22,257 nt of DNA. It comes from an uncultured bacterium (GTDB lineage: Bacteria; Electryoneota; AABM5-125-24; Hatepunaeales; Hatepunaeaceae). Made by a program: the position numbers and the translations under genes. The notes beneath the pieces are model-generated. The model was not told the DNA's origin and made no database searches. It worked only from the letters and a program-made list of their open reading frames with translations. Below are positions 2,369-22,257 of this stretch, in pieces (positions within the stretch are counted from its first letter, which is position 1; each line of letters begins with the position of its first letter). The stretch spans positions 1-22,257 of the forward strand of contig CAYYHI010000034.1 in assembly GCA_964471745.1 (NCBI GenBank), given 5' to 3'.

Positions 2369-3895
2369 TTATTCAAAACCGAGCTCACCGACCGTGTCTT
2401 CAGTTACTTTTACAATAGAGCCATCCCGAACCATAGCCACTATCTTTTCGATATCGGGATAGAGAACCCGGTCATTCTCCAGGAAGGCAACCTGCTCCCG
2501 GATCTTATGATAGGCGATGCGTGTTCCTTTGCCTGGTTGGAGTGGCTTGCGGTAGTCAAACGCCTGAGCGGCTGACATCATCTCTATCGCCAGTACCGCG
2601 CCGACATTGCGCAGGATTTCACCGCACTTGCGCACTGCGATCGGCGTCATAGCCACGTGATCCTCCTGATCGGCGGAAACACTGATAGAATCGACGCACG
2701 CCGGATGAGACAGCACCTTGTTCTCGCTGACCAGCGCCGCCGCAGTGTACTGCGCTACCATAAGTCCCGAATTGAGACCATTACCCTCTACGAGGAAATC
2801 AGGCAGCCCGGATAGATTCTTATTCAGAAGACGGTTGGTATGCCGTTCGGACAGGTTGGCGATTTCGGACATCGCCATTGCCAGGAAGTCCATCCCCAGC
2901 GCGATGTTCTGACTGTGGAAGTTGCCGCCCGCCAGGTAAGCTTCGCCCTCCGTAAAGAACAGCGGATTATCCGCCGATGAGTTCATCTCCGTTTCAACCT
3001 GCTTGCGTACGTACAGCCATGCATCGACCGTCGGACCGTAAACCTGCGGTGTGCAGCGCATCGAATAGCCGTCCTGGACCTTGCCTGAACCGTCGGCGAT
3101 GACTTCGCTGTCAGCCATCAACATCCGCAGATGTTTCGCCACCAGGTTCTGGCCGTGGAACGGGCGCGCTGCGTGCAACCGGGCGTCGTAAGCCGATTGG
3201 ACTCCCTTCAGTGCGTCGATGGTCATAGCTGACGCAATGAACGCGTTTTTAATCAGATTGCGGGCGTCGACCAACTCCAGCGCTGCGCCACCGACGCACA
3301 TCTGACTGCCGTTGATCAGCCCCAAACCTTCCTTGTAGCCGAGGTCGATGATCTTGATGCCGGCTTGCTCCATCGCCTGACCGCCCGGCATCCGCTCGCC
3401 CTTATAGTAAGCTTCGCCTTCGCCTAAGCATACTAAAGCCAACTGCGACATCGGGGACAGATCGCCGGAAACGCCCAAAGAGCCTTTTTCGCAAACTACC
3501 GATGTAACGCCCTTGTTCAGCATATCCACTAAAACCTGCGGAATCTGCAGCCTGACGCCGGAATTGCCGCGGCAAAGCGTGTTCGCGCGCAACAACATCG
3601 CTGCTCGCACATTCTCCTCAGGAAACGGATCACCAGTACCGGCGGCGTGGCTGTAAATAATACGCCGCTGTAGTTCGGAACTCATTTCAGGTGACACGCG
3701 CAAACGTGCCAGTTCGCCAATGCCGGTAGTCACACCATAAATGGCTGTACCCTTGTCAACTAACTTTTGAATCAGCGCAGCAGAAGCGTTGATCCGTTCG
3801 ATTGCTTCCGGTGCGAGTTCAACTTCGGCGCCGTTTCGAGCAACCTGAGCAACCTGGTCTATATTAAGGTTGTTTCCGTTTATTTGTATTTTCAT
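2369..3895 (-). CDS. hutH: Histidine ammonia-lyase (MIO-dependent aromatic amino acid lyase family)
   Basis: Matches HAL across its 508 aa. It has the SGDL active-site region (GSLGVSGDL) and the conserved FHSQNIALGMDFLAMAMSE..SERHTNRLLN..LSGLPDFL block. The ATG is at 3895 and is preceded by an AGGAG RBS. Confidence 0.88.
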   Translation of the reverse strand: MKIQINGNNLNIDQVAQVARNGAEVELAPEAIERINASAALIQKLVDKGTAIYGVTTGIGELARLRVSPEMSSELQRRIIYSHAAGTGDPFPEENVRAAMLLRANTLCRGNSGVRLQIPQVLVDMLNKGVTSVVCEKGSLGVSGDLSPMSQLALVCLGEGEAYYKGERMPGGQAMEQAGIKIIDLGYKEGLGLINGSQMCVGGAALELVDARNLIKNAFIASAMTIDALKGVQSAYDARLHAARPFHGQNLVAKHLRMLMADSEVIADGSGKVQDGYSMRCTPQVYGPTVDAWLYVRKQVETEMNSSADNPLFFTEGEAYLAGGNFHSQNIALGMDFLAMAMSEIANLSERHTNRLLNKNLSGLPDFLVEGNGLNSGLMVAQYTAAALVSENKVLSHPACVDSISVSADQEDHVAMTPIAVRKCGEILRNVGAVLAIEMMSAAQAFDYRKPLQPGKGTRIAYHKIREQVAFLENDRVLYPDIEKIVAMVRDGSIVKVTEDTVGELGFE

Positions 3896-4020
3896 GTTTT
3901 ATGTACTCCTGAGATGCAGTATAGTATAATTTTTATTAGGTTCCCGCCAGATTACGACCGTAACAATACTTTGAAATCCACAAGCCAGGAATCCATCGGT
4001 CTTGAAATCTGGCGGTAACT
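3896..4020 (-). promoter_or_regulatory. hutH 5' leader/promoter region (copy U1). It has a conserved structured element (outer stem CCGCCAGATT...AATCTGGCGG, inner GACCG/CGGTC) and an AGGAG RBS.
   Basis: Inverted repeats lie immediately upstream of the hutH ATG. The whole segment recurs, ~85% identical, at 7467-7600. Confidence 0.4.
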
Positions 4021-4041
4021 AAATAATTGTCTTCCTTTCAT

Positions 4042-4136: not shown

Positions 4137-5726
4137 TTAGTCAAATATCTTCTCTTGGTTATCTGATTTATTTACGAATTTGGGAGCTCCCAATAGTCCT
4201 CCTCCAGGAGGAATCTTAAAGCAATCCGGATCACTTAGCAGTTGCGGGATTGTTAAAATCTGCATCCGAGGATAATCCCGGTTCATAACCTCCGAATGAT
4301 AAAATCCGGCTGAGGACGCTTCCGAAATCATCCCCGCAGTTGGCGGTTCGAGAGTTATGAATGCGCTCATTTCAGCCTTTTCCCTCTCCATTACGCCCTT
4401 GAGGTCGCGTATCTGGGATGGGTTCACGGTCCCGGATTTCACTTGAATGATGCATTTGGCGTACGTTCGCCGAGGACCGTGTATAAAACTCCTGTAGCCA
4501 TCGATACCCCGGTCAGCGCCCTTTTTCTTTTCACCCCACGGTCGAGCGTTGATTAACCCCAATGCCCAATATTGGAACTGGTATCGGTTCTCCCTTGCCA
4601 AAGCTCTCGCCTCTTCCACGGTTGTCGGTTCACCGATTACATCGTAGGACTGGCGATCCATACCGAACCTGGAGTATAGCCGGAATTTAATCAGGTCGAT
4701 CGCCAAGTGAGTTACATCGATCCCGATCCATTGACGCGGTGGAAGCTCCGGATTCTCTTTATTAAGAGTCTCAACTGCATCGATTGTTGTGCCGCAGCCG
4801 CAGAAGGGATCGAGGATTATATCACCTGATTTGGATGCCGAATTAACTACCCTGTGTAAGAGCTCCAACGGTTTTTGTGTTTGGTAACCGAGTCTTTCCT
4901 TAGCCTGTGAATTAATAAAATCGATCTCCCAAACGTCGGGCGCAGTAGTTAATCGGGTTTCTGCTTCGACGATCCTTGCATAATCTTTGAGATTTATCCT
5001 TCCCCGCGCTACGGCTTCTTCAACCTTCCCTTTATCATAGATGATTAACTGTGGCTTTCTCACGCCATCAATTGGTACTGTATTTCGATCCCAGCCTCTT
5101 TCGTGCTTCTTAATTTGTCCGGATGTTGGTTTAATATAAGTCCTGTTGATTTGATGTTGCATATCCTTCGCATAAAACAGGATATTATCATGCATCCTTT
5201 GGAAGTGCTTCGATTTTGCAGTCCACCGCCTGTAATACCATATTATATCATTTCGGAATAGCTTCGGTCCAAATATCGCATCCAAGACAAGCTTGAGGTA
5301 ATGACTGGCGGTCGGATCGCAATGCAGATATAACGAACCGGTCGGCTTCAATATCCGGTGCAATTCAACCAGTCTGACAGCCATCTGGACTAAATACGCA
5401 TACATGGGCGAATGACAGAGGAAGCTCTCCAGCATATTTAACAGAGCAACCAACGGCTGTGGTGTATAGTCAATTACGCTGTTTATCTCATATAAAGCCT
5501 TCGCGGCGTTCTCATCCCACCTCCATGTATCCTCAAACGCCTTGATCTGAGCCGATGAGGGTGTTCCTTCCTCGTCCTTAAACAGAACGTTGTAGCTCTG
5601 ATTGGAGTTAAATGGCGGATCAAGGTAGATCAGGTCGACCGATTCCGATGGAAAGAAATCCCTGTCTCTGAGGAATTTGAGGTTATCACCGAAATATAAA
5701 CGATTGGTGGGGATCATACAACACAT
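4137..5726 (-). CDS. Beta-class DNA amino-methyltransferase (N6-A/N4-C; DPPF...FCGCG) fused to a C-terminal Mrr-type PD-(D/E)XK restriction-endonuclease-like domain (paralog A)
   Basis: Motif IV DLIYLDPPF comes before motif I ILDPFCGCGTT, the beta permutation. PTGSLYLHCDP is also present. The C-terminus has YWALGLINARPWG..RGIDGY..CIIQVKSG..IRDLKGVM..AFITLEPPT, matching the Mrr catalytic-domain hallmarks (GIDG, QxK, FxTt). The likely real start is the conserved MIPTNRLYF at 5717. Confidence 0.8.
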   Translation of the reverse strand: MCCMIPTNRLYFGDNLKFLRDRDFFPSESVDLIYLDPPFNSNQSYNVLFKDEEGTPSSAQIKAFEDTWRWDENAAKALYEINSVIDYTPQPLVALLNMLESFLCHSPMYAYLVQMAVRLVELHRILKPTGSLYLHCDPTASHYLKLVLDAIFGPKLFRNDIIWYYRRWTAKSKHFQRMHDNILFYAKDMQHQINRTYIKPTSGQIKKHERGWDRNTVPIDGVRKPQLIIYDKGKVEEAVARGRINLKDYARIVEAETRLTTAPDVWEIDFINSQAKERLGYQTQKPLELLHRVVNSASKSGDIILDPFCGCGTTIDAVETLNKENPELPPRQWIGIDVTHLAIDLIKFRLYSRFGMDRQSYDVIGEPTTVEEARALARENRYQFQYWALGLINARPWGEKKKGADRGIDGYRSFIHGPRRTYAKCIIQVKSGTVNPSQIRDLKGVMEREKAEMSAFITLEPPTAGMISEASSAGFYHSEVMNRDYPRMQILTIPQLLSDPDCFKIPPGGGLLGAPKFVNKSDNQEKIFD

Positions 5727-5744: not shown

Positions 5745-5815
5745 TCAAACCTTTAGCGCCGTACTGAGCAACCTGGTCTATATTAAGATTGTTATCGTTT
5801 ATTTGTGTTTTCAAT
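5745..5815 (-). repeat. Degenerate copy of the hutH 5' coding end (the ATG has decayed to ATTG). It forms a short uORF-like leader directly upstream of MTase-nuclease A.
   Basis: The reverse complement reads (L)KTQINDNNLNIDQVAQ..., versus hutH MKIQINGNNLNIDQVAQVA. The conserved junction CCAATTGGACT(C/T)AGCATTTCAAACCTT(T/C)AGCGCCGT precedes both MTase genes. Confidence 0.7.
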
Positions 5816-5841: not shown

Positions 5842-7380
5842 TCAATCAAACATCTTATTTTGAGAATCATCCCGCTTCTTAAATTTTGGTGCCGAGGCTA
5901 ATTGTCCACCTGGAGGAATCTTAAAAATATCCGGATCCTTAAATAATTCTTTGATTGTTAGTATCTGCAAACGCGGATAATCCTTGTTCATCACCTCGGA
6001 ATGATAAAACCCAGTTGCAGCAGACTCCGTTATCATCTCTTTAGTTGGCTTCTCAAGAGTAATGAAAACACCAAGTTTTGCATTTACTCTTTCCATAGTC
6101 CCTTTTAAATCCCTTATCATACTGGGATTAACTTTACCAGATTTTACCTGAACTATACATTTTTCGTATTTTCGCTTGGCACCGTGTAGGAAGTATCTAT
6201 ATCCATCTATTCCTCTATCGGGTTTTCCCCACGGACGTGCCCCAATTAAACCGAGAGCCCAATATTCGAATTGTTTACGATTCTCAAGCGCCAAGGCTTT
6301 AGCTTCCTCTAAGGTAGTTGGTTCCCCTATAACATCATAATAGTTTCTATCGATACCGAATCGTGTCATAAGACGGTTCTTCATAAGATCAATCGCCAGA
6401 TGTGTGATGTCGATGCCGATCCACTTGCGAGGCGGTTTGTCGGGAGTTTCCTGATTTAATGTCTCTACAGCGTCAATTGTCGTTCCGCATCCGCAGAAGG
6501 GATCAAGGATCATATCGCCGGGATTTGAGCCGATAGTTATTATCCTTCTTAGAAGTCGAACAGGTTTTTGGGTATCATAACCCAATGATTCTTTTTCACC
6601 ACTGGTGAGTTTTTCAATATTGAATAAATCATCCAACGGACGCCCGTATGCCATTGCGTCTTCAATATAGCGTTTGATTCTCTTTCCCTTTCCAGCATCG
6701 GAAAGAACGTATTCCCTTCCATCTTTATCTACATGGATTTTTTGCTTCCTAACTTTTATATATTCCTCCTTTGATTCCCATTCGGCTGTCGGGTAGTTAA
6801 AGGTAAATCTCAATTTCTTTCTATATAGAAATATAGTATCATGTCGGGATTCAATCCTGGATTTCAGCTTTTTATTCCATCCTGAATAATGCCAAACTAT
6901 ATCATTTCTGAAATTCTTCGGTCCGAAAATGCCATCTAATAATAATTTTAAATAGTGACTCGCCGTCGGATCGCAGTGCAGGAATAGCGAGCCAGTAGGC
7001 TTCAGAATCCTATGCATCTCGACCAATCTCACCCCCATCTGCACCAGGTAAGCATACATCGGTGAATGTTTCAGGAATTCTTCCAGCATATTGATCAAAG
7101 CGACAAGCGGTTGGGGAGTGTAGTCAATAACCGTATTCATTTCATGCAGCGCTTTTGCAGCAGATTCATCCCAGCGCCACGTGTCCTCGAAAGCCTTAAC
7201 CTGTGCCGTTGAGGGCGTCCCCTCAGCTTCTTTGTACAGAACGTTATAGCTCTGATTGGAATTGAACGGCGGATCAAGGTAGATCAGGTCGACCGATTCC
7301 GATGGGAAGAAATCCCTGTCCCTGAGGAATTTAAGGTTGTCACCGAAATATAGGCGGTTGGTGGGGATCATATACAACAT
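5842..7380 (-). CDS. Beta-class DNA amino-methyltransferase fused to a C-terminal Mrr-type nuclease domain (paralog B; the central target-recognition region differs from A)
   Basis: Has the same motifs as paralog A (DLIYLDPPF, ILDPFCGCGTT, DRGIDGY, CIVQVKSG, VFITLEKPT). The N-terminal ~160 aa and the C-terminal nuclease domain are highly similar to A. The region between motif IV and motif I is strongly diverged. Confidence 0.8.
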   Translation of the reverse strand: MLYMIPTNRLYFGDNLKFLRDRDFFPSESVDLIYLDPPFNSNQSYNVLYKEAEGTPSTAQVKAFEDTWRWDESAAKALHEMNTVIDYTPQPLVALINMLEEFLKHSPMYAYLVQMGVRLVEMHRILKPTGSLFLHCDPTASHYLKLLLDGIFGPKNFRNDIVWHYSGWNKKLKSRIESRHDTIFLYRKKLRFTFNYPTAEWESKEEYIKVRKQKIHVDKDGREYVLSDAGKGKRIKRYIEDAMAYGRPLDDLFNIEKLTSGEKESLGYDTQKPVRLLRRIITIGSNPGDMILDPFCGCGTTIDAVETLNQETPDKPPRKWIGIDITHLAIDLMKNRLMTRFGIDRNYYDVIGEPTTLEEAKALALENRKQFEYWALGLIGARPWGKPDRGIDGYRYFLHGAKRKYEKCIVQVKSGKVNPSMIRDLKGTMERVNAKLGVFITLEKPTKEMITESAATGFYHSEVMNKDYPRLQILTIKELFKDPDIFKIPPGGQLASAPKFKKRDDSQNKMFD

Positions 7381-7399: not shown

Positions 7400-7600
7400 C
7401 AAACCTTCAGCGCCGTGCAGGCAACTTGGTCTATGTTAAGGTTGTTTCCGTTTATTTGTGTTTTCATGTTTTATATACTTCTTAGATGCAGTATAACATA
7501 TTTTTTATTAGGTTCCCGCCAGATTACGACCGCGCTAATACTTTGAAATCCACAAGCCAGAAATCCATCGGTCTTGAAATCTGGCGGGAACTAAAAATGT
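7400..7600 (-). repeat. Second copy of the hutH 5' coding end (7400-7466; intact uORF MKTQINGNNLNIDQVACTALKV*) plus the hutH leader/promoter (U2, 7467-7600), upstream of MTase-nuclease B.
   Basis: Direct comparison with 3815-4020 gives ~85-90% identity. The uORF stops 19 nt before the MTase B ATG. Confidence 0.75.
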
Positions 7601-7746: not shown

Positions 7747-10086
7747 TTACTTATTTATTATCTCCCAGATCCTTTCCTTCGCTTCAGCGAGCTCCATACT
7801 CTCGGTGTTGACGATATAAAGCGGAACAGCATCCAGCAGTCTATTCCACTGGCGGCGCAGCAGATCCATGCGCGCGGCGTCGCTAACCAGGAGATACGGA
7901 TTGTAGAACGGAACCGAGAACCACCGTCCGTGCGACATCGAATAACCGCCCTCTTCGATTATGCGCAGCGCGGCGTCAGTTGACGGTTTGTCTACCTTCG
8001 GCGCCATGGTGTCCCTCTTCAGCAGGATTATGGAGCTTAGCAGCGTCCGCTTGATATGCCTGGCTGAACCGCCGATCCAGTATGGGTCGAGTATGGCGAA
8101 TGAATTGCGCGATCCCTCATAGCAGCAGGCTGCGCCCTGTTCGAGTGGGCATTCGCTGCTGACCAGATGCTTTTCTGCCTGGCAATCGTCCGACTTCGTG
8201 ACGACGTTCTCCAGCTTGGATCGGTCGAATAAGGGCATCAACTCCGGAAGCTTTCCTGCCAGGTTGGTATGTATCAGGAACTTACGCTCAACCGAATCGG
8301 CGATCGGCGAACCTCCAGCCTGACGGACGAAGAACCCGTCGTAGCTGTGCAATCGGGCTTCCTGACGGCGCATCAGACCGGCGAAATGAGTCGAACCACC
8401 TGTCCCCGGCGGCGCAATCAGGGCAACGCCCCGACCGTTGACATCAAAGCACGAGCCGACAACAAGGTGCATGTCGAACGTGCGCGAGGCGATGTCATCG
8501 ACAATACCCAACGTCATGGCACGCAACTGCGGATAGAAGGCGGTGTTGAACGTCAAACCGGTACGTGTCTGAGAGTTATAGAAAACGCGCGCTTCCCGTC
8601 CCGGCGCATCCTTGACACCGTACAGCAAACCGTGAGGTTCGAGATCCGACTCGATTGGCGATGGATACCAGTTCTCCGTCCAGAAGTCGATGAGATGCGG
8701 TGAGTTCGTCATCATCTTCACTACAACACCGCCGATGTTGGCGCACCATTCGTGATAGCGGTCGTATGTCATTGCTGCTTCAGCCTCAGAAACGAGCGCG
8801 TCGCGCATCTCTATTTCGATAGCTGTTTCCAGTTCGGAATAATCCTTGATCTTGGTCACTGTGTTGTTTAACGCCCGCCGCTTGGCTTTGGTAGTCGGTT
8901 TCAGCCATGCCAGCGCCTCGGTTACCCTGTCCAGCGCAATAGCCAGATTCTCCTGCGATGTCGCATACGAGAAGCGGATGAAATTGTCCGCACCGAACGC
9001 ATCACCGGGTACGAGCGCTACGTGGGCGTGCTTCAGAAGGTAGTATGCCAGTCCGCTGGAATTGCGTATCGGTACGCCTTCGAACTGCTTGTCGTAGTAC
9101 CACGAGAAATTCGGGAAGGCATAGAACGCGCCCTCAGGCTTGTTGCAGGATACGTGCGGCATGCCGTTCAGCTTATAGATCACGAAGTTACGCCGTGCTT
9201 CGAACTCCTGGCGCATCCGAACGATTTCGTGCTGCGGTCCGGTCAGCGCTTCCACGCCCGCCCACTGCGCGACCGAATTGGGATTGGAGGTGGCGTGCGA
9301 CTGTACCTTGGACATGCCCTGAATCAGTTCCAGAGGTCCCACTGCATAGCCGAGTCGCCAGCCGGTCATCGCGTAGGATTTCGAGAAGCCGCAGACAATG
9401 ATCGACTTGCTTCTGACCTTCTCGCCAAATGCAGCGACCGATTTCATCTCGAATCCGTCGTAAACGAGCTTTTCGTAAATCTCATCGGCGATGATAAACA
9501 AGCCTTCATCCATACAGACGTCGATAAGCTTCAGCAACTGATCCGGGTTATAGGCAGCGCCGGTGGGGTTGCACGGGTTGTTGAGGATAATGGCTTTGGT
9601 TCGGGCAGATAAGGCACGTCCCAGGTCTTCGGTTGTCAGCCGGAAACCGTTTTCCTCGCGTGTATTGACGTAGATCGGCACTCCCTTGGCGAGGTTCACC
9701 ATGTGCGGATATGACACCCAGTATGGCACCGGCACAATGACCTCGTCGCCCTTGTTCAGCAACGCGGTGCAGGCGTTGAACAGGCACTGCTTGCCACCCG
9801 TAGAGACGATCACCTCGCCCGGTTTGTAATCTGCACTGCATTCATCGCTGTACTTGCGGGCGATGGCTTCGCGCAGCTCCAGAATGCCGGTGTTGTCGGT
9901 GTATTTCGTATAGTTCTTGTCGAGAGCCGCTTTCGCCGCGTTCTTAATGTTCTCCGGCGTGGGAAAATCAGGCTCACCGACGGAAAGGTTTATGACATCG
10001 ATCCCTTCGCGCCGCATCTGCTGCGCCTTGGAGCTGATGCGCAAGGTCGACGAAAAGCCTATGCGTTGTACTCGGTCTGATAACAT
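7747..10086 (-). CDS. Fusion protein: N-terminal aspartate/aromatic aminotransferase (PLP fold type I), joined to a C-terminal ~380-aa extension containing an HprK-C/PEPCK-like domain with a degenerate P-loop.
   Basis: AspAT hallmarks are present in the first ~400 aa: SVGEPDF, NNPCNPTG, the PLP-lysine block FSKSYAMTGWRLGY, and RFSYA. The C-terminal part has GRGVALIAPPGTGGSTHFAGLMRRQEARLHSYDGFFV. This resembles the HPr-kinase C-domain G-x-GVLI-G-SG-GKSE..L...G..LV-DD but lacks the Walker-A Lys. It is one uninterrupted 779-codon frame. Confidence 0.7.
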   Translation of the reverse strand: MLSDRVQRIGFSSTLRISSKAQQMRREGIDVINLSVGEPDFPTPENIKNAAKAALDKNYTKYTDNTGILELREAIARKYSDECSADYKPGEVIVSTGGKQCLFNACTALLNKGDEVIVPVPYWVSYPHMVNLAKGVPIYVNTREENGFRLTTEDLGRALSARTKAIILNNPCNPTGAAYNPDQLLKLIDVCMDEGLFIIADEIYEKLVYDGFEMKSVAAFGEKVRSKSIIVCGFSKSYAMTGWRLGYAVGPLELIQGMSKVQSHATSNPNSVAQWAGVEALTGPQHEIVRMRQEFEARRNFVIYKLNGMPHVSCNKPEGAFYAFPNFSWYYDKQFEGVPIRNSSGLAYYLLKHAHVALVPGDAFGADNFIRFSYATSQENLAIALDRVTEALAWLKPTTKAKRRALNNTVTKIKDYSELETAIEIEMRDALVSEAEAAMTYDRYHEWCANIGGVVVKMMTNSPHLIDFWTENWYPSPIESDLEPHGLLYGVKDAPGREARVFYNSQTRTGLTFNTAFYPQLRAMTLGIVDDIASRTFDMHLVVGSCFDVNGRGVALIAPPGTGGSTHFAGLMRRQEARLHSYDGFFVRQAGGSPIADSVERKFLIHTNLAGKLPELMPLFDRSKLENVVTKSDDCQAEKHLVSSECPLEQGAACCYEGSRNSFAILDPYWIGGSARHIKRTLLSSIILLKRDTMAPKVDKPSTDAALRIIEEGGYSMSHGRWFSVPFYNPYLLVSDAARMDLLRRQWNRLLDAVPLYIVNTESMELAEAKERIWEIINK

Positions 10087-10183: not shown

Positions 10184-10345
10184 TTAATGGTTGATTTTAT
10201 TAGAATTAAACATCAAATCAATATCACTCTCAAATTCCTCCTCCCCCCGAGCCACCGAACCGAACAGAGCCAGGCGTTTGACCTTGAGCTCTTTTAACTT
10301 GTTACGGTGCTCAATGAGAAGGTTGAGTATATTGGAGCGAATCAT
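10184..10345 (-). pseudogene. Truncated MntA-like nucleotidyltransferase (53 aa N-terminal fragment: [53 protein letters not shown])
   Basis: Contains the GSxxRG and DxD minimal-NTase motifs but stops after ~53 aa. It lies 7 nt downstream of hepT. Confidence 0.55.
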
Positions 10346-10352
10346 AGGTGTT

Positions 10353-10733
10353 TCAATCCATCCAATATTCGGTGACTATCTTATCCAACTTTTCGCGCAG
10401 TAAGGGAACATCATCGGTAATGGTTGTCCAGACCCGGTTCAAATCAATCCTGTAGTAGGCATGTATCAGGCGGTTGCGCATCCCGATGATGTCCTCCCAT
10501 GGAATGTCGGAGAATTCACGCCGGACTTCGGGCGAGACCTTGGAAGCTGCCTCACCGATCAACTCAATGGCTTTCACAACCCCAAGCTCCAACAGGCGAT
10601 CTTTATCCAAATCCCGGCGCGTCTTGCTTTGAGTGAACTGTTCCACATCCCTCGCGGCATCCAGCATGTGCCGCAGCCGGATGAAGTCATCCTTGTGCAT
10701 ACTGCACCTGCGCCGATGAAATAACATCATCAC
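10353..10733 (-). CDS. hepT: HepT-family HEPN toxin (DUF86) of a MntA/HepT type VII toxin-antitoxin pair
   Basis: Carries the R-x4-HxY motif (MRNRLIHAY). The likely start is the internal Met at 10700, which gives a 14-nt overlap with mntA. Confidence 0.8.
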
Positions 10734-10986
10734 GGAAATATGGACTTAGGTCGTCCGGTGTCCGAAGGTCAACCTTGCGCCCAAGTATCGCCGACAGTTC
10801 CCGCTCCATTGCCGCCATCCGGAGAAGTCCCACTACCGCTTCGGGTTCAAACTCCACCAGCACGTCAATATCGGAGTCCGGGTGGAATTCCTCCCGAAGC
10901 ACCGACCCGAAGAGTGCCAGTCGTCGGATGCGATGCTTGACGCAGAAGGACTTGATCGCGCGTTTGTCTATGTTGAGCTTGCCCAT
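10687..10986 (-). CDS. mntA: MntA-family minimal nucleotidyltransferase antitoxin
   Basis: Contains [24 protein letters not shown] (GS..R...x..SDxD). It is ~99 aa and sits immediately upstream of hepT. Confidence 0.8.
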
Positions 10987-11003: not shown

Positions 11004-11130
11004 TCACAACTTCTCGCGCGACGCCGAGTCTAAGAGCGCCAGGCGTTTGACCTTGAGCTCTTTTAACTTGTCGTGGTTTTTGGTTAGAAGTTGTAAAATA
11101 TCTTCACGAGTCAAAACATTTCTCCCTAAA
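11004..11130 (-). pseudogene. Second MntA-like N-terminal remnant (...LTREDILQLLTKNHDKLKELKVKRLALLDSASREKL*)
   Basis: Shares an exact 34-nt stretch (GCCAGGCGTTTGACCTTGAGCTCTTTTAACTTGT, encoding KLKELKVKRLAL) with the fragment at 10184-10345. The GS motif is lost and a stop follows. Its start is unclear. Confidence 0.4.
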
Positions 11131-14310: not shown

Positions 14311-15765
14311 CTATTCGTCCTTTAGCCCGGTCTCTTTGCTCTCATCTTTGTTGAGGGCTTTACTGGCAAACTTCTTCAAATCAATCCCTGACAACGCCTG
14401 AACGACTTCCGGCAGTTGAGCCAGTATCTCTGCGACCTGTCGTGTCAGGTGCGTCGCGCCGGATTTACCGTCGCCGCCGTCGATGACCACCATTTTGTCG
14501 ATGCGGGACATCGGCTCGGAAATCGCCTTTGCCAGTTCGGGCAGCTTGTCCATAATCATCTGGTATACAGCCGCCTCGTTATATGACTTGAAAGCGTCCG
14601 CTTTGGCTGCCATCGCATCCGCTTCAGACTCACCCATCTTTCGAGTGTATTCGATGTGGCTGATACCGGCGGCTTTCTTGACCTCGACATCGGCTAATCC
14701 CTCAGACTTCTGTGCTGAGGCGCGTCCCTCGGCTTCGGAAGCCAGCCGGAACTTCTCTGCAGTGGCTTCGGTCTCAACCTGGAACTTGCGCGCTTCAGCC
14801 GGGCGCTTCACGGACGATTCGAGCTCCAACTCACGCCGCTTGATCTCCTGCTCTTCGACCTTGATAGCTGCTTCCTTTTCGACAAAACGCGTCTGATACT
14901 CAGCCTTCTTCAGACTGGCAGCCTGTTTGTGACGTTCGAGTTCGTAGGCAGCATCTGACTGGGCCTTGCGGGTGTTGGTATCGATCTGGAAGCCTGTTTT
15001 CTTCAGTTCGAAATCGTGACCGGCTTTGGCAATTTCAGTCTCAACCTGGAAGCGGACAATGTCGCCCTCCTTGCGTGCTTCTGCAGACTTGATAATCGTA
15101 TCTTTATCGGTTTCAGCTTCAGCAACTGCTGCATCCCGCTTGACTTGAGAAATGCGCGGTTGTCCCAGTGCGTTGAGGTAGCCCTGAGTGTCGGATATAT
15201 CACCGAGATTGAAGGACAACAGTTCCAGACCCATCCGTTCGAAGTCTTCCTGGGCGTTCTTTCTGACATCTTCAGCGAAATCATCACGGTTCTGGAAAAT
15301 CTCCTCAGGTGTCATTGAGCCGATTGTCGAACGTGCATAGCCTTCCAGGATATGTCCGGCGACTTCTTTGATACCGGTTGAACCCCGACCGAGGAATTGC
15401 TCGGCTGCCCGGCGGATAGCACCTTGATTCGAAGCTACCTTGACCTGTGCCAATGCCTCGGCGATTATTTGTACACCTTGTTTTGTAAGTACTTCAGGGA
15501 TTCTAATCTGAATGGTGTAGGTTTCAAGAGGCAAAACCTGCGCCGTTTCACGAAACGGCATGACGAAGGCGCCGCCGCCGATAACCATCCGGTAACCGAC
15601 CTTGATACGTTGACCTTCCTCTTCGATGATTCGCTTGCGCCCGCCGGATATGATCAGTACTTCGTTGGGTCCGACCTTCCGGTATTGCTTTGCCTGGGCA
15701 AGGATTAACAGACCAATAACTACAACTACAACGCCGATTATGATGAGCAGTGTTACCGTACTCAT
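14311..15765 (-). CDS. Flotillin-like SPFH/band-7 domain membrane protein
   Basis: N-terminal TM helix, SPFH core, and a long EA-rich coiled-coil with a C-terminal flotillin-like region. The start is set at the Met at 15765, which has an AAGAGGG SD. The ORF track extends to 15816. Confidence 0.75.
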   Translation of the reverse strand: MSTVTLLIIIGVVVVVIGLLILAQAKQYRKVGPNEVLIISGGRKRIIEEEGQRIKVGYRMVIGGGAFVMPFRETAQVLPLETYTIQIRIPEVLTKQGVQIIAEALAQVKVASNQGAIRRAAEQFLGRGSTGIKEVAGHILEGYARSTIGSMTPEEIFQNRDDFAEDVRKNAQEDFERMGLELLSFNLGDISDTQGYLNALGQPRISQVKRDAAVAEAETDKDTIIKSAEARKEGDIVRFQVETEIAKAGHDFELKKTGFQIDTNTRKAQSDAAYELERHKQAASLKKAEYQTRFVEKEAAIKVEEQEIKRRELELESSVKRPAEARKFQVETEATAEKFRLASEAEGRASAQKSEGLADVEVKKAAGISHIEYTRKMGESEADAMAAKADAFKSYNEAAVYQMIMDKLPELAKAISEPMSRIDKMVVIDGGDGKSGATHLTRQVAEILAQLPEVVQALSGIDLKKFASKALNKDESKETGLKDE

Positions 15766-15844
15766 ATTAGCCCTCTTAAATATCTTTGAATGAAAAATTC
15801 TGTAGTATTGATGCACAGATAATTAATGCAGCAGATAAATATAT

Positions 15845-15991: not shown

Positions 15992-17857
15992 ATGAGCAGT
16001 ATATATGATGAAGCGGCATACCGTCAGTTCGCCCAGAACCTGCCGCATGCACTATCAGGTAAGAATATCAAGCATATAAAGCTTGATAAGTTACGTAAAC
16101 CGTCAATAGAGACCGGCACGCCAACCAAGTTTGGTTCCTGGGGATGGCGGTCGGCAGTTTCGAGTCGCATAGGTCCCAAGACTGTTTACCTTGGATCTGA
16201 ACCAGTGCTTCTCCCAAAACCAACTGACTTGCATAAGAGCATTATCGCCGTCGCTCCGGACGAGTTGCACAAGGTTCTTCAGCTTTGCCGCACGCTGCCG
16301 ATGGTGCATATACGCCGCCGCATGGGGGAGAATAGCGAATACAATCCGATCTGTAATCTGTACATATCCGTCGCTGATCATAAGAACTACCGCCTGGCTT
16401 ACATGTGGGGGAGCACGATGGGCGATCCGGATAAAGGCTTGCCCGGACCGGAGTTCACCATGATACACATTCCGGAAGAACACGTCCTGCGCCAGCAGGT
16501 GCTTCACCTTCCCGAATACCATATCAACATCGCCCTTGGTACGGATTATATGGGTGAGAATAAAAAGGGCTTTCTTCGTCAGTCGATGTGGTACGCGGAC
16601 GAACACGGCATGCTCGGGCTTCATGCCGGTACGAAGATGGTGACGGTTCGAGATACCAATGACAGCAAACTGAAGAAGTACGGCGTGCTTCTCTTCGGAT
16701 TGTCAGCCACCGGTAAATCCACCTGGTCATGCCACCAACTCGGCTTGAACGAAAAAGATGGCGAGAAAACCGAAACCATTCAGGATGATATTGTATTTCT
16801 TAAGAGTGACGGCTCGGCGCTCGGTTCGGAACAGAACTTCTTCGTTAAGACCGATGTCGACGCCAAACTCCAGGAAGCGATGTTCTGGTCGCTGACCGAT
16901 AAAACGGCGCTGTACGAAAACGTGATGATCGACTCCGACGGTAATCCGGATTTCCTGGATGAGAGCCTCTGTGCCAACGGACGTGCCGTCATTCGCAAAG
17001 ATAAATTGCGCGTAAGGCGCGGCAGGAAGCTGGTCAGAATAGATTACGACGGTCTGAACCTGCCGACTCTTGATAAGCTGGACGGTTTATGCTTTGCGTT
17101 CATAACCCGGCGCAACACAATGATGACTTTCGCGCAGGAGTTAACCCCTGAGCAGGCAGTTCTTGCCTATCTATGGGGGGAATCATCGCACAGCTTTGCC
17201 TCGGAGCCGGCAAAGGCGGGTGAGTCGGTAAGGACAGTCGGCACCGATCCCTTTATCGTCGGTTCACGGGCGCGCAAGGTCAACCGTTTCCGCGATATCA
17301 TCATGGGATTGTGTGAACGCTACCCGGGCAAGGTTCGATTTTTCCAGTACAACACCGGCGGCATCGGTGAGATCATTGAAATTAAGGAAACACCTGAAGG
17401 CAGGAAGAAAAACATGGTGCGTAAGGTCAAACGGGTGCCTATCCCACTGATGGCGGCTATCCAAAAGGGTGACCTGCGTATGACGAACAGATACGAGAAG
17501 GGCAGACTGGGAACGAAGGAGATCGTAGCGGTGGAGGGGTCAGATCTTAGTGAATATGACCCGAAAAAGTACTATGACGAGGCACAGATAAACTCCTATA
17601 TCGAAGAGATCGTTGACGGCAGGCGGAAATTTACTGAGATGATCAGTTCGGAAGGGCTTGACCGCGAGATCATCAAGTGGGCTGAGAAGTCTTATGAGAT
17701 ATCGAGAGCGGCTGAGAAAGAAGTCTGGCAGGTTGGAGTTCCGAAAGAACCGGAGAAAGCTGAGAAGCTCGATCTTATGATGCCTGTCGGGGTTGGCAGC
17801 AACGACGGGGAATCGATCTACCGACCGCCGCGTTCGCTCGGCTGGAGGATTAAGTAG
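15992..17857 (+). CDS. ATP-dependent phosphoenolpyruvate carboxykinase-like protein (atypical, 621 aa)
   Basis: Blocks match the PckA family. GTDYMGENKKGFL ~ GGTWYGGEMKKGMFS. Kinase-1a LLFGLSATGKST ~ FFGLSGTGKTT. IQDDIVFLKSDG ~ IGDDEHGWDDDG. NGRAVI ~ NTRVSYP. The N- and C-terminal regions are divergent or extended. Confidence 0.7.
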   Translation: MSSIYDEAAYRQFAQNLPHALSGKNIKHIKLDKLRKPSIETGTPTKFGSWGWRSAVSSRIGPKTVYLGSEPVLLPKPTDLHKSIIAVAPDELHKVLQLCRTLPMVHIRRRMGENSEYNPICNLYISVADHKNYRLAYMWGSTMGDPDKGLPGPEFTMIHIPEEHVLRQQVLHLPEYHINIALGTDYMGENKKGFLRQSMWYADEHGMLGLHAGTKMVTVRDTNDSKLKKYGVLLFGLSATGKSTWSCHQLGLNEKDGEKTETIQDDIVFLKSDGSALGSEQNFFVKTDVDAKLQEAMFWSLTDKTALYENVMIDSDGNPDFLDESLCANGRAVIRKDKLRVRRGRKLVRIDYDGLNLPTLDKLDGLCFAFITRRNTMMTFAQELTPEQAVLAYLWGESSHSFASEPAKAGESVRTVGTDPFIVGSRARKVNRFRDIIMGLCERYPGKVRFFQYNTGGIGEIIEIKETPEGRKKNMVRKVKRVPIPLMAAIQKGDLRMTNRYEKGRLGTKEIVAVEGSDLSEYDPKKYYDEAQINSYIEEIVDGRRKFTEMISSEGLDREIIKWAEKSYEISRAAEKEVWQVGVPKEPEKAEKLDLMMPVGVGSNDGESIYRPPRSLGWRIK

Positions 17858-21371: not shown

Positions 21372-22257
21372 ATGGATGGATTTAAGATTCTATTCAAGAT
21401 AATCGCATTGTTGTTAACCGGATTTATAGTACTGACCTGCACCCAAGACCAGACCCCAACCGAACCACTTATCGATTACATTTCACCTTTAGTTGAATGG
21501 CTTTACCCTCACGGCGGCAATGAGTTGTCGGGCGTGGTCGAGCTGCGTTTCAGCGTTTATGACGAGGTTGGGATCGACAGCGCCTGTGTGTACATCAATG
21601 GCTCCCTGTTCGGGGAGGGTAGACACTCCTGTCTGCCACCAAACGGGGAGGGTAGACACTCCTGTATGCCATCTGATAACAAGTGGGACGGACATTCCTG
21701 TCTGTCAGTGAATTGTGGTCAGACTGCATCAGCCGACACCATCTTCAGTTTATCCTGGAACACCCTTGACTTCGACGACGGCGTCTACATCCTCGAAGCC
21801 CGCGCCTGGGACGATAGCGGCAACTTGGGGATAAGTCCTTCGCTGGTGGTGAACGTCCGTAACGGTGACCAGCCTCCGCCGGAAGACCGGATGCCGCCGG
21901 ACGTCTGGTGGACAGCGCCGGATCCCGGCAGCACGGTCGAAGGCGATGTTCTACTGCAGATAGGCATATACGACGAGAATGATGTTGATTCGGTGCGACT
22001 GATAAAAAACGGAGAGGTTGTGTATGAGTATCATCCTGGCACCCCCCCTTCAATTCCCCCCCGGAAACCGGTGGGGAGAGAGCCCGTTACATCTGCACGC
22101 CAAGCTGGTGGAATTAAGGTTGTGTATGAGTATCATCCTGGCACCCCCCCTTCAATTCCCCCCCGGAAACCGGTGGGGAGAGAGCCCGTTACATCTGCAC
22201 GCCAAGCTGGTGGAATTAAGGATAGAAACAATTCATTCTCTCCCCCCCGCTCCGCGG
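21372..22257 (+). CDS. Lipoprotein (3' end outside the window) with repeated Ig-like modules, in-frame tandem repeats and C7 homopolymer tracts
   Basis: GGAGG RBS. Signal peptide ILFKIIALLLTGFIVLTC with a lipobox LTC. The frame is open for 295 codons to the window edge, so the ORF track does not list it. Two related modules (WLYPHGGNELSGVVELRFSVYDEVGIDS / VWWTAPDPGSTVEGDVLLQIGIYDENDVDS) are present. Confidence 0.6.
   Translation, partial: MDGFKILFKIIALLLTGFIVLTCTQDQTPTEPLIDYISPLVEWLYPHGGNELSGVVELRFSVYDEVGIDSACVYINGSLFGEGRHSCLPPNGEGRHSCMPSDNKWDGHSCLSVNCGQTASADTIFSLSWNTLDFDDGVYILEARAWDDSGNLGISPSLVVNVRNGDQPPPEDRMPPDVWWTAPDPGSTVEGDVLLQIGIYDENDVDSVRLIKNGEVVYEYHPGTPPSIPPRKPVGREPVTSARQAGGIKVVYEYHPGTPPSIPPRKPVGREPVTSARQAGGIKDRNNSFSPPRSA
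21608..21673 (+). repeat. 33-bp in-frame tandem repeat ×2 (GEGRHSCLPPN / GEGRHSCMPSD), plus a degenerate third unit (WDGHSCLS), inside the lipoprotein gene
   Basis: CGGGGAGGGTAGACACTCCTGT(C/A)TGCCA occurs twice in tandem. Confidence 0.7.
22017..22220 (+). repeat. Perfect 102-bp tandem duplication ×2 (34-aa unit VVYEYHPGTPPSIPPRKPVGREPVTSARQAGGIK) containing two C7 tracts per unit
   Basis: Exact repeat 22017-22118 and 22119-22220, read from the sequence. A third C7 tract follows at 22243-22249. Confidence 0.8.

Follow-up and report, generated by a model that had tools for sequence, protein, structure and literature searches.

Why should an aspartate aminotransferase (AspAT) carry, in the same polypeptide, a second domain that resembles HPr kinase/phosphorylase (HprK) and phosphoenolpyruvate carboxykinase (PEPCK)? 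The question is raised by a gene of an uncultured bacterium of the Electryoneota, found within the stretch of 22,257 nucleotides that we analysed as a whole (the window). The open reading frame listing gives it as a single uninterrupted, ATG-initiated frame on the minus strand (7747..10086; the first-pass annotation had left the strand unstated), encoding 779 amino acids and followed by the stop codon. The first-pass annotation had read this frame as a complete aspartate-type aminotransferase joined to a domain with a P-loop that belongs to the HprK/PEPCK superfamily, a reading that our analysis bears out, the frame being continuous. The explanation that we prefer, with a probability of about 0.45, is that the second domain, a reduced PEPCK fold that we call mini-PEPCK, is a non-catalytic adaptor for a partner PEPCK and couples the conversion of aspartate via oxaloacetate to PEP.

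A real and widely conserved fusion

The simplest explanation would be an artefact, by loss of a stop codon (the null explanation offered by the first-pass annotation), by a frameshift or by chimeric assembly. Comparison of orthologous loci for a split or fused state refutes it: the aminotransferase (residues 1–395) and the mini domain lie within one ORF in 75 of the 80 species-representative loci compared, which come from at least 10 phyla, with full-length homologues spanning 777–823 residues, and the junction is split in none of the 80. The remaining five loci comprise four truncations at contig starts and one frame break near residue 63. Truncated or split forms of the homologues were considered and rejected, as the apparent 'partial' proteins are explained by N-run scaffold gaps or contig ends. 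The C-terminal 379 residues alone have 69 database relatives (best E 1e-197) and a relative is encoded in 314 species-representative genomes, which puts the continuous frame far beyond chance. The two halves also co-evolve, their identities co-varying with r of 0.90, and within the window clade both have a low dN/dS (0.076 for the mini domain and 0.081 for the aminotransferase). The connector between them (residues 396–439; 8770..8901, minus strand) is conserved, with L406, N408, T411, R428, L431 and E434 standing out, and structured: in the domain model it forms short strands and a helix packing on mini-PEPCK, with pLDDT of 89–97, and standalone relatives of the domain start with this very segment. 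Only a hinge at residues 400–404 has low pLDDT in the full-length model. With continuous ORFs in so many independent species-level assemblies, an artefact has a negligible probability, and the gene is a real, widely conserved AspAT::mini-PEPCK fusion. The architecture had been called unusual; it is not rare, given the 314 genomes, but it is undescribed, as no description of the fusion, the domain or the gene cluster was found in searches of the literature available without subscription.

The N-terminal half (residues 1–395; 8902..10086, minus strand) is a class-Ib aspartate aminotransferase domain. Pfam PF00155 matches residues 30–388 (E 1.4e-76, 258.5 bits against a cut-off of 19.7) over the whole domain, i.e. 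profile positions 2–361 of 361, and the best NCBIfam matches are aspartate aminotransferase models (E 2e-123), with scores that miss the equivalog cut-offs (411.8 bits against 550 for NF041091 and 395 bits against 617 for NF004769). AspAT A of PDB 6f77_A is matched over residues 2–388 with E 6.4e-109. The PLP lysine, Lys236, is part of SKSYAMTGWRLGY (residues 235–247; 9346..9384, minus strand), identified from homologue conservation and the 6f77 alignment and kept in all homologues that cover this region; SKSYAMTGW of the window protein aligns with SKAYAMTGW of 6f77_A, where the motif reads SKAYAMTGWRIGY. The family is clear, and from sequence we infer the exact substrate range to be that of a class-Ib AspAT, with the predicted reaction Asp + 2-oxoglutarate <-> oxaloacetate + Glu. 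Nothing was found in support of the suggestion that this is a PLP enzyme working on a phosphorylated substrate. A substrate-phosphorylation logic, as in CobD/PduX or HisC, was rejected because the aminotransferase clearly resembles Ib AspATs and has a PEPCK as its conserved neighbour.

A reduced PEPCK fold with a degenerate P-loop

Residues 440–779 (7750..8769, minus strand) form the mini-PEPCK domain, which has the two-lobe PEP-carboxykinase fold in reduced form and contains the structural core of the HprK kinase domain. It includes the string HLVVGSCFDVNGRGVALIAPPGTGGSTHFAGLMRRQEARLHSYDGFFV (residues 540–587; 8326–8469) singled out by the first-pass annotation. At the sequence level the similarity to PEPCK is seen in profile-profile comparison only. 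The C-terminal 379 residues have no Pfam match, PF01293 included, and no PEPCK NCBIfam match, and BLASTP of the domain against the neighbouring PEPCK returned nothing (E 18), so that the relationship had to be sought by comparing profiles and structures. The window protein likewise has no Pfam Hpr_kinase_C match at the gathering score of 33.3 bits, and TIGR04352 gives E 0.081. The mini-PEPCK family, defined by the trimmed alignment A3, its core residues and a length of ~340 residues, is undescribed and without an above-threshold Pfam or NCBIfam model; the A3 profile retrieves 317 cluster representatives at E ≤ 1e-3. All core residues are present in the window protein: W447, N461, Y489, T509, Y518, R/K522, G551, E600, R601, D667-P668, N729-P730 and N760. 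Three architectures contain the domain, which is found standalone, fused to PEPCK or fused to AspAT, and in each of them E600 and R601 vary little or not at all. These two residues belong to the VERKF motif (8278..8292, minus strand), recognised by column conservation and by alignment to PEPCK, where it takes the position of PEPCK FEGGCYAK and HprK EIRG; its K602 is invariant in the AspAT-fused group and the commonest residue in the PEPCK-fused group. Other features are peculiar to AspAT-fused copies. The acidic set E446/E479/D481/E483/D597 is conserved only there, and the cluster C635-x4-H640-x5-C646-x8-C655 (8122..8184, minus strand; from column statistics), which is Cys4 in most relatives, is specific to the AspAT-fused subgroup and occurs in neither the PEPCK-fused nor the standalone group. 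It is a probable Zn site.

The P-loop of the window protein, APPGTGGST (residues 558–566; 8389..8415, minus strand), is degenerate, with Gly564 in the place of PEPCK Lys254. The replacement of the Walker lysine (GTGGST) had been noted in the first pass and stands, but it is peculiar to the small clade of the window: counted by alignment columns, ~66 of 76 full-length relatives have Lys at position 564, Gly being confined to the window clade, and the P-loop of most relatives is GxxGTGK[ST] or GPKGTKKT. Purifying selection on the mini domain of this clade continues despite the lost lysine (dN/dS 0.076). As for the remaining catalytic residues of PEPCK, D269 corresponds to D583, kept in the window protein and nearly invariant in the family, H232 to H540, where only 28 of 59 members have His, and R333 to Phe663, where 28 of 64 have Arg. 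K213 does not correspond to a Lys, at a place where hhalign does not map the N-lobe reliably; the same holds for the equivalents of Y207, K212 and R65, the last of which is ambiguous. For Y207, hhalign indicates Y503, while Y518 is favoured by secondary structure and by the standalone motif NTDYYGQCKSWALG. The window copy thus has neither the PEPCK P-loop GxxGxGK[ST] (K254/T255) nor the complete set of Mn2+ ligands and substrate arginines (K213/H232/D269 and R65/R333), and without the lysine it does not have the HprK Walker A, GxSGxGKS, either.

Could the protein nevertheless be a true bifunctional AspAT/PEPCK, in which the C-terminal domain turns oxaloacetate into PEP or decarboxylates it? 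The whole PEPCK fold is retained and the window protein has equivalents of Y207, D269 and possibly H232. However, with K254 replaced by Gly and R333 by Phe, no lysine at the K213 position, an inconstant H232 equivalent, ~120 N-lobe residues missing and a complete, catalytically intact PEPCK encoded alongside, we consider this very improbable. Judging from its residues, the mini-PEPCK copy in the fusion is probably non-catalytic.

A more serious alternative is that mini-PEPCK is an active nucleotide-dependent enzyme, likeliest an HprK/P- or PDRP-like regulatory kinase/phosphorylase of PEPCK, AspAT or another protein, or, in a variant, a small-molecule kinase, with activity lost secondarily in the window clade. 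Canonical Walker A sequences in most AspAT-fused relatives, and in 6/6 of the standalone relatives examined (together with LHSDDW and a conserved His), argue for the importance of nucleotide binding or catalysis in a large part of the family, to which the window clade may be the exception, and this counts against a non-catalytic adaptor. The near-invariance of D583 and the sub-threshold Pfam Hpr_kinase_C matches in 18 of 65 members (best E 2.7e-6) point the same way, and so does an intein found directly after the P-loop in one relative, since inteins typically sit at functionally critical motifs. Against an active enzyme, the window clade lacks the lysine and yet its mini domain is under strong constraint, and in the archaeal PEPCK-fused group the P-loop has degenerated strongly, with the lysine poorly kept (K 35, R 27 and I 22 of 94). 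The HprK signature motif, an above-threshold Pfam or NCBIfam match and a substrate candidate are all lacking. On balance we regard an active enzyme as unlikely. As for phosphorylation of HPr at Ser46, the activity of HprK itself, neither the window nor the conserved neighbourhood contains HPr or PTS genes.

Gene cluster and fusion partners

The first-pass annotation had stressed that the gene lies beside a methyltransferase cassette. The location is correct, but the methyltransferase cassettes are secondary insertions, and it is two other neighbours, a flotillin and a true PEPCK, that are informative: they belong to a conserved cluster, flotillin – AspAT::mini-PEPCK – catalytically intact PEPCK. 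The flotillin of the window (14311..15816, minus strand), a FloT-like SPFH protein with Band_7 and Flot domains (NF058507, E 2e-117), is the conserved upstream operon partner, here displaced 4.2 kb from the fusion gene by insertions; in 69 of 80 loci it precedes the fusion gene in the same orientation, at a distance within 300 bp in 65 of these. The PEPCK (15992..17857, plus strand; 621 residues) is full-length and belongs to a divergent ATP-type lineage (PF01293, E 1e-21; NF006821, E 5e-81). Equivalents of Y207, K212, K213, H232, K254, S/T255, D268, D269, K288 and R333 are kept in 52/52 cluster PEPCKs, the sole tested catalytic residue not kept being R65, whose alignment position is unreliable. 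A PEPCK lies within the flanks of 50/80 loci: in 32 it follows the fusion gene within 300 bp downstream, in 12 it is upstream and divergent, and in 6 it is upstream with the same orientation as the fusion gene. It was not found in the fetched flanks of the other 30, many of which are short, and this counts against the adaptor reading. The PEPCK of the window ends in a basic tail, YRPPRSLGWRIK (17819..17854, plus strand), a candidate docking or membrane-binding peptide. Such RPxR-type tails, with a net charge of +4.7, are found in 50/52 cluster PEPCKs and are absent from mini::PEPCK fusions and from 545-residue PEPCKs.

The PEPCK-fused architecture links the domain directly to this enzyme. In at least 95 clusters, from many Archaea and a few Bacteria, mini-PEPCK sits at the N-terminus of a PEPCK of the same lineage as the window neighbour, giving proteins of 879–913 residues, which is a Rosetta-stone link. 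Hosts of the domain include hundreds of uncultured species, among them Asgard archaea, Bathyarchaeia, Aminicenantes, Zixibacteria, Calditrichota, KSB1 and Latescibacterota, and current annotations as 'aminotransferase' or 'PEPCK' hide the extra domain. Near the mini::PEPCK fusions, neither AspAT nor flotillin was found in the four contexts considered (two archaeal, two bacterial), which also counts against the adaptor reading; these contexts, like three of standalone copies, were otherwise uninformative.

These observations are consistent with the channelling or regulatory role proposed for the fusion in the first pass, and the cluster suggests an undescribed physical coupling of oxaloacetate-making and oxaloacetate-consuming enzymes. 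We propose that mini-PEPCK is not a second carboxykinase but a partner module of one PEPCK lineage, attached to the N-terminus of PEPCK itself in many Archaea and a few Bacteria, and to the C-terminus of AspAT in the bacterial lineages of the window, where PEPCK is encoded in the same cluster with flotillin. The module would hold AspAT and PEPCK together as an adaptor, so that labile oxaloacetate derived from aspartate could be handed directly to PEPCK and converted to PEP, feeding gluconeogenesis from amino acids. The docking element may be the basic C-terminal tail, which is found only on unfused PEPCKs, although the tail could equally bind the membrane or flotillin. The module may also sense ligands common to AspAT and PEPCK. 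A purely cis-acting version of such sensing, in which the remnant active-site cleft binds a nucleotide, PEP or oxaloacetate to tune AspAT and no PEPCK is bound, would account for the conservation of cleft residues in all three architectures (Y518 ~ Y207, R/K522 ~ K212, E600, R601 and D667-P668), for purifying selection that persists without the catalytic lysine and for the structured connector. We find it improbable, as it leaves unexplained both the archaeal fusion of the domain to PEPCK and the special tail of the unfused cluster PEPCKs, and as the full-length AF2 model (pTM 0.53), with its flexible hinge, gives no confident inter-domain arrangement, no fixed geometry and no confident interface between the aminotransferase and the mini domain. 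The missing fixed geometry tells against the adaptor reading as well.

The adaptor reading can be extended further: a major PEPCK lineage would have in the pseudo-PEPCK an ancient and so far overlooked subunit, an adaptor or a regulator, attached to PEPCK in Asgard and other Archaea and, in at least 10 bacterial phyla, to AspAT, forming there with a flotillin scaffold a membrane-associated Asp->oxaloacetate->PEP metabolon. For this more ambitious picture we would put the odds clearly on the unfavourable side. Cells switch between catabolism and gluconeogenesis mainly at the PEP-pyruvate-oxaloacetate node, and our results point to an overlooked PEPCK-fold domain family that is wired to this node. 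If the adaptor or metabolon exists, it would explain how amino-acid-fermenting sediment bacteria convert aspartate to PEP without loss of unstable oxaloacetate, provide a clean natural case of a pseudo-enzyme paralogue used as a docking module and tie a bacterial flotillin to central metabolism; the metabolon would represent a new organising principle for this node in uncultured protein-degrading bacteria. The adaptor reading leads to directly testable predictions about what the P-loop does, about the binding of Zn and about an interaction between the tail and a patch.

Comparison with known systems

The N-terminal 395 residues resemble class-Ib AspATs (Sinorhizobium AatA 6f77, Thermus AspAT 1bkg and Arabidopsis PAT 5wmh) from end to end, PLP-lysine motif included, with E of 6e-109 to 3e-90. 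Unlike the fusion, known class-Ib AspATs and aspartate-prephenate aminotransferases are stand-alone dimers of ~385–410 residues without a C-terminal domain. ATP-dependent PEPCK (PckA; PF01293; PDB 1ii2, 1aq2) has ~540 residues as compared with ~340–384 in mini-PEPCK, and the window copy differs from it in lacking the Walker lysine, the R333 equivalent, a K213-type Mn ligand and a PF01293 match, while the mini domain has an invariant set of its own (ERK, DPxW and acidic N-lobe motifs) and the inserted Cys cluster. With the C-terminal domain of HprK (PF07475) only ~135 of 384 mini residues correspond; the mini domain has neither the HprK signature loop nor the MurE-like N-domain and scores below the Pfam gathering score, and in the window protein the Walker lysine is missing as well.

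The closest relatives by domain are the mini::PEPCK fusions (~880–910 residues, annotated 'phosphoenolpyruvate carboxykinase'), which belong to the same mini family (best E 1e-55 with the A3 profile), share W447, N461, Y489, T509, Y518, R522, G551, E600, R601, D667, P668 and N760, and contain the PEPCK lineage of the neighbouring gene. They differ from the window protein in that the domain is carried by PEPCK and not AspAT, forms a separate clade with a still more degenerate P-loop, has no Cys cluster or AspAT-group acidic residues and has no flotillin or AspAT nearby. Assemblies that channel oxaloacetate exist, for example the mitochondrial metabolon of AspAT, malate dehydrogenase and citrate synthase. 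By analogy, the logic would be alike, with the producer and the consumer of unstable oxaloacetate co-localised; that metabolon, however, is non-covalent and built of unrelated folds, whereas the adaptor proposed here would be a pseudo-paralogue of the consumer enzyme.

An aspartate aminotransferase joined to a reduced PEPCK-fold domain

The gene at 7747..10086 (minus strand) appears in the ORF listing as one uninterrupted frame of 779 aa with an ATG start, which confirms the single ORF that the first-pass annotation had described, and both the PLP-lysine motif SKSYAMTGWRLGY (aa 235–247) and the cited string (aa 540–587) with its P-loop-like APPGTGGST (aa 558–566; window 8389–8415) were located in it. 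In the window protein PF00155 spans aa 30–388 (E 1.4e-76), the top NCBIfam matches are aspartate aminotransferase (AspAT) models (E 2e-123, equivalog cut-offs not reached) and solved class-Ib AspATs, for example 6f77_A (E 6.4e-109), can be aligned over the whole length of the domain. The N-terminal half is an intact Ib AspAT.

The C-terminal half had no Pfam match and only a marginal NCBIfam one, to TIGR04352 ‘HprK-related kinase A’ (E 0.081). The AlphaFold2 model of aa 396–779, built from a 65-sequence alignment, is very confident (pLDDT 93.3, pTM 0.90), and PEPCKs make up all of the top 50 Foldseek matches in the PDB (E 1.8e-17, TM 0.74). Profile comparison by hhalign gave Prob 95% and E 1e-8 against a profile of the cluster PEPCK, and Prob 89% and E 2e-6 against a profile headed by E. 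coli PckA (the sequence used is identical to 1aq2_A). Since Pfam Hpr_kinase_C also matches 18/65 relatives, always below threshold, the original HprK-C-like assignment was right at the level of the superfamily, but the domain as modelled is a complete two-lobed PEPCK fold, reduced from about 540 to about 340–384 residues, which we call mini-PEPCK. The full-length model (pLDDT 83.9, pTM 0.53) places a hinge at 400–404 and speaks neither for nor against a fixed geometry. An intact Ib AspAT is joined to a reduced PEPCK-fold domain, and we refer to the fusion as AT::mini.

The null explanation raised at first, a lost stop codon joining two genes, has to be weighed against the relatives. Searched against the protein collection, the C-terminal 379 aa retrieve 69 relatives (E down to 1e-197), many with an N-terminal PF00155, and in the full-length alignment the frame is continuous across the junction in all homologues that reach it. 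Where a homologue looked cut short or split, an N-run scaffold gap or the end of a contig accounted for it in every case. When species were scanned at one genome each, 314 genomes had a relative, and of 80 loci fetched, 75 carry the whole aminotransferase (query residues 1–395) and the C-terminal domain in a single frame of 711–823 codons, while four are truncated by the contig start. The remaining one, JBHIER010000055.1, is the sole interior locus with a broken frame; the break is in the aminotransferase near aa 63, away from the junction, and may be a frameshift or an assembly error. Pairwise identity in one half tracks that in the other (r 0.90). The lost-stop explanation is therefore refuted and an assembly artefact very unlikely; AT::mini is an ancient fusion passed on by vertical descent. 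The closest relatives of the window protein are 86% (L005) and 74% (L006) identical. The hosts, all uncultured, are Zixibacteria, Calditrichota, KSB1, Latescibacterota, Aminicenantes/Acidobacteriota, Planctomycetota, Gemmatimonadota, Eisenbacteria, TA06, Ignavibacteria, Zhuqueibacterota and Hatepunaea. One 2.85-Mb Zixibacteria chromosome (CP070796.1) has two AT::mini paralogues, P0051 and P0054; at the P0051 locus NDK lies directly downstream and N-run gaps on either side.

Catalytic residues and selection

Aligned to E. coli PckA, H232 corresponds to window H540 (His in only 28/59 of the family), K254 to G564 (mostly Lys), T255 to S565 (mostly Thr or Ser), D268 to Y582, D269 to D583 and E282 to E600 (both nearly invariant), K288 to H606 and R333 to F663 (Arg in 28/64). 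The equivalents of Y207/K212 are Y503/R508 according to hhalign, or alternatively Y518/R522, a pair favoured both by the secondary-structure prediction and by a motif of the standalone relatives, NTDYYGQCKSWALG, set against GTWYGGEMKKG. No lysine is found at the K213 position. The catalytic set of PEPCK is not kept, and mini-PEPCK is therefore not a canonical carboxykinase; a role as a second catalytic PEPCK is very unlikely. It has a strongly conserved set of its own: Y444, E446, W447, T460, N461, H464, E471, N472, Y474, P475, E479, D481, E483, P484, H485, Y489, G496, R497, T509, Y518, R522, D583, R588, D597, E600, R601, K602, S623, E626, N627, D667, P668, W670, R680, N729, P730 and N760, together with a Cys cluster (C635/C640/C646/C655) that is Cys3His in the window.

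The P-loop was first described as degenerate. This holds for the window, where Gly replaces the Walker lysine, but not for most relatives: of 76 full-length ones, about 66 have Lys at the position and a few have Arg, while Gly is confined to the window and its two closest relatives. The main rival to the reading we favour below sees in the family an active nucleotide-dependent enzyme, either a regulatory kinase (HprK/P-like or PDRP-like) or one of another kind, whose activity was lost in this clade. The clade departs from the family consensus at 14/97 strongly conserved mini-domain positions and at 9/152 aminotransferase positions, the latter mostly conservatively. Compared with L005, the window has a dN/dS of 0.076 in the mini domain and 0.081 in the aminotransferase (dS 0.77–1.0); the domain without its lysine is thus under strong purifying selection. 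Its function in this clade is independent of the catalytic lysine, and the Walker lysine is dispensable there.

The flotillin and PEPCK neighbourhood

AT::mini belongs to a conserved flotillin–AspAT::mini–PEPCK cluster. In the window a FloT-like flotillin (14311–15816, minus) is divergent to a 621-aa PEPCK (15992–17857, plus). In 69/80 loci a same-strand flotillin precedes AT::mini, within 300 bp in 65 and sometimes overlapping it. The PEPCK is downstream on the same strand within 300 bp in 32/80, upstream and divergent in 12/80, and upstream in the same orientation in 6/80. The catalytic set Y207, K212, K213, H232, K254, S/T255, D268, D269, K288 and R333 is kept in 52/52 cluster PEPCKs, so this is a real enzyme. 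The link of a membrane-scaffold protein to a central-metabolism operon is conserved. NDK is interleaved in some lineages, within or after the fusion/PEPCK pair (L004, 2764–3189; L001, 11587–12015; also L038, L043 and L067; Zixibacteria-like, Calditrichaceae and Ignavibacteriales loci), which hints at nucleotide supply for PEPCK.

The flotillin and AT::mini are 4.2 kb apart in the window because a HepT/MntA toxin–antitoxin pair with 92-nt direct repeats and small ORFs has been inserted. The repeats (10241–10332 and 11010–11101, 73% identity) bracket 10353–10986, within which the type VII pair lies between AT::mini and its usual flotillin partner. Downstream of AT::mini are repeat-bounded cassettes, hutH (2369–3895, minus) and two paralogous N6/N4 methyltransferase+Mrr_cat genes (4137–5726 and 5842–7380, minus). 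A repeat of 50–175 nt with 86–92% identity (3845–4023, 5764–5813, 7417–7595) lies at the upstream, minus-strand 5' edge of each of the three genes, and its copies look like repeated cassette junctions or promoters. Elsewhere in the window, a C5 cytosine methyltransferase gene (150–1244) overlaps that of a Vsr very-short-patch repair endonuclease (1237–1650), a classic Dcm/Vsr pair, and a 102-nt unit is perfectly duplicated in tandem at the window end (22015–22218).

Other architectures and a proposed role of the mini domain

An exhaustive search with the mini-domain profile gave 317 cluster representatives at E<=1e-3. Some are complete standalone proteins of 355–410 aa whose P-loop is the canonical APTGTGKST and which also carry LHSDDW and IHSIHG. 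Another, of 899 aa, has the mini domain followed by a full PEPCK of the window neighbour’s lineage, an architecture that recurs in at least 95 clusters of 879–913 aa, mainly from Hod-, Hel-, Loki-, Frey- and Promethearchaeota, Bathyarchaeia and Altiarchaeota, with a few from Bacteria. The mini domain is therefore also fused elsewhere to the cluster PEPCK’s lineage, which is Rosetta-stone evidence. In these fusions the Walker position is K in 35, R in 27 and I in 22 among 94. AT-fused, PEPCK-fused and standalone domains separate cleanly into three groups in a distance tree and share W447, N461, Y489, T509, Y518, R/K522, G551, E600, R601, D667, P668, N729, P730 and N760; the acidic E446/E479/D481/E483/D597, R497, R588, R680 and the Cys cluster are found only in the AT-fused group. 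A distant relative, P0145 (754 aa), carries an intein (PF14890, E 1.5e-16; residues 216–393) directly after the P-loop region.

The PEPCKs beside AT::mini have a C-terminal extension, a Pro/Glu-rich linker followed by a conserved basic tail such as SKSRPRRERFWRSR; that of the window is YRPPRSLGWRIK (17819–17854, plus). An RPxR-type tail (RPRRxxFWRSR-like, net charge +4.7) is present in 50/52. Comparison of C-termini found no such tail in the mini-domain–PEPCK fusions or in same-lineage 545-aa PEPCKs, and it is confined to PEPCKs that co-occur with AT::mini. This is what would be expected of a peptide that lets a PEPCK lacking a covalent link to the mini domain dock on it in trans; such docking is possible, and the membrane or flotillin could equally be the partner.

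We infer that the mini domain partners PEPCK or serves as its adaptor, without catalysis of its own, and would thereby couple the making of oxaloacetate by AspAT to the use of it by PEPCK. It may in addition sense shared ligands itself. Among the rivals, a cis-allosteric sensor comes next after the active kinase or nucleotide-dependent enzyme.

Pfam and NCBIfam models all fall below threshold on the mini domain, and in the source records these proteins are annotated as ‘aminotransferase’ or ‘phosphoenolpyruvate carboxykinase’. In full-text searches of literature open without subscription, neither the fusion nor the domain nor the cluster was found described. Both folds are known; what is new is a domain family of the PEPCK superfamily in new architectures, with a conserved link to flotillin.
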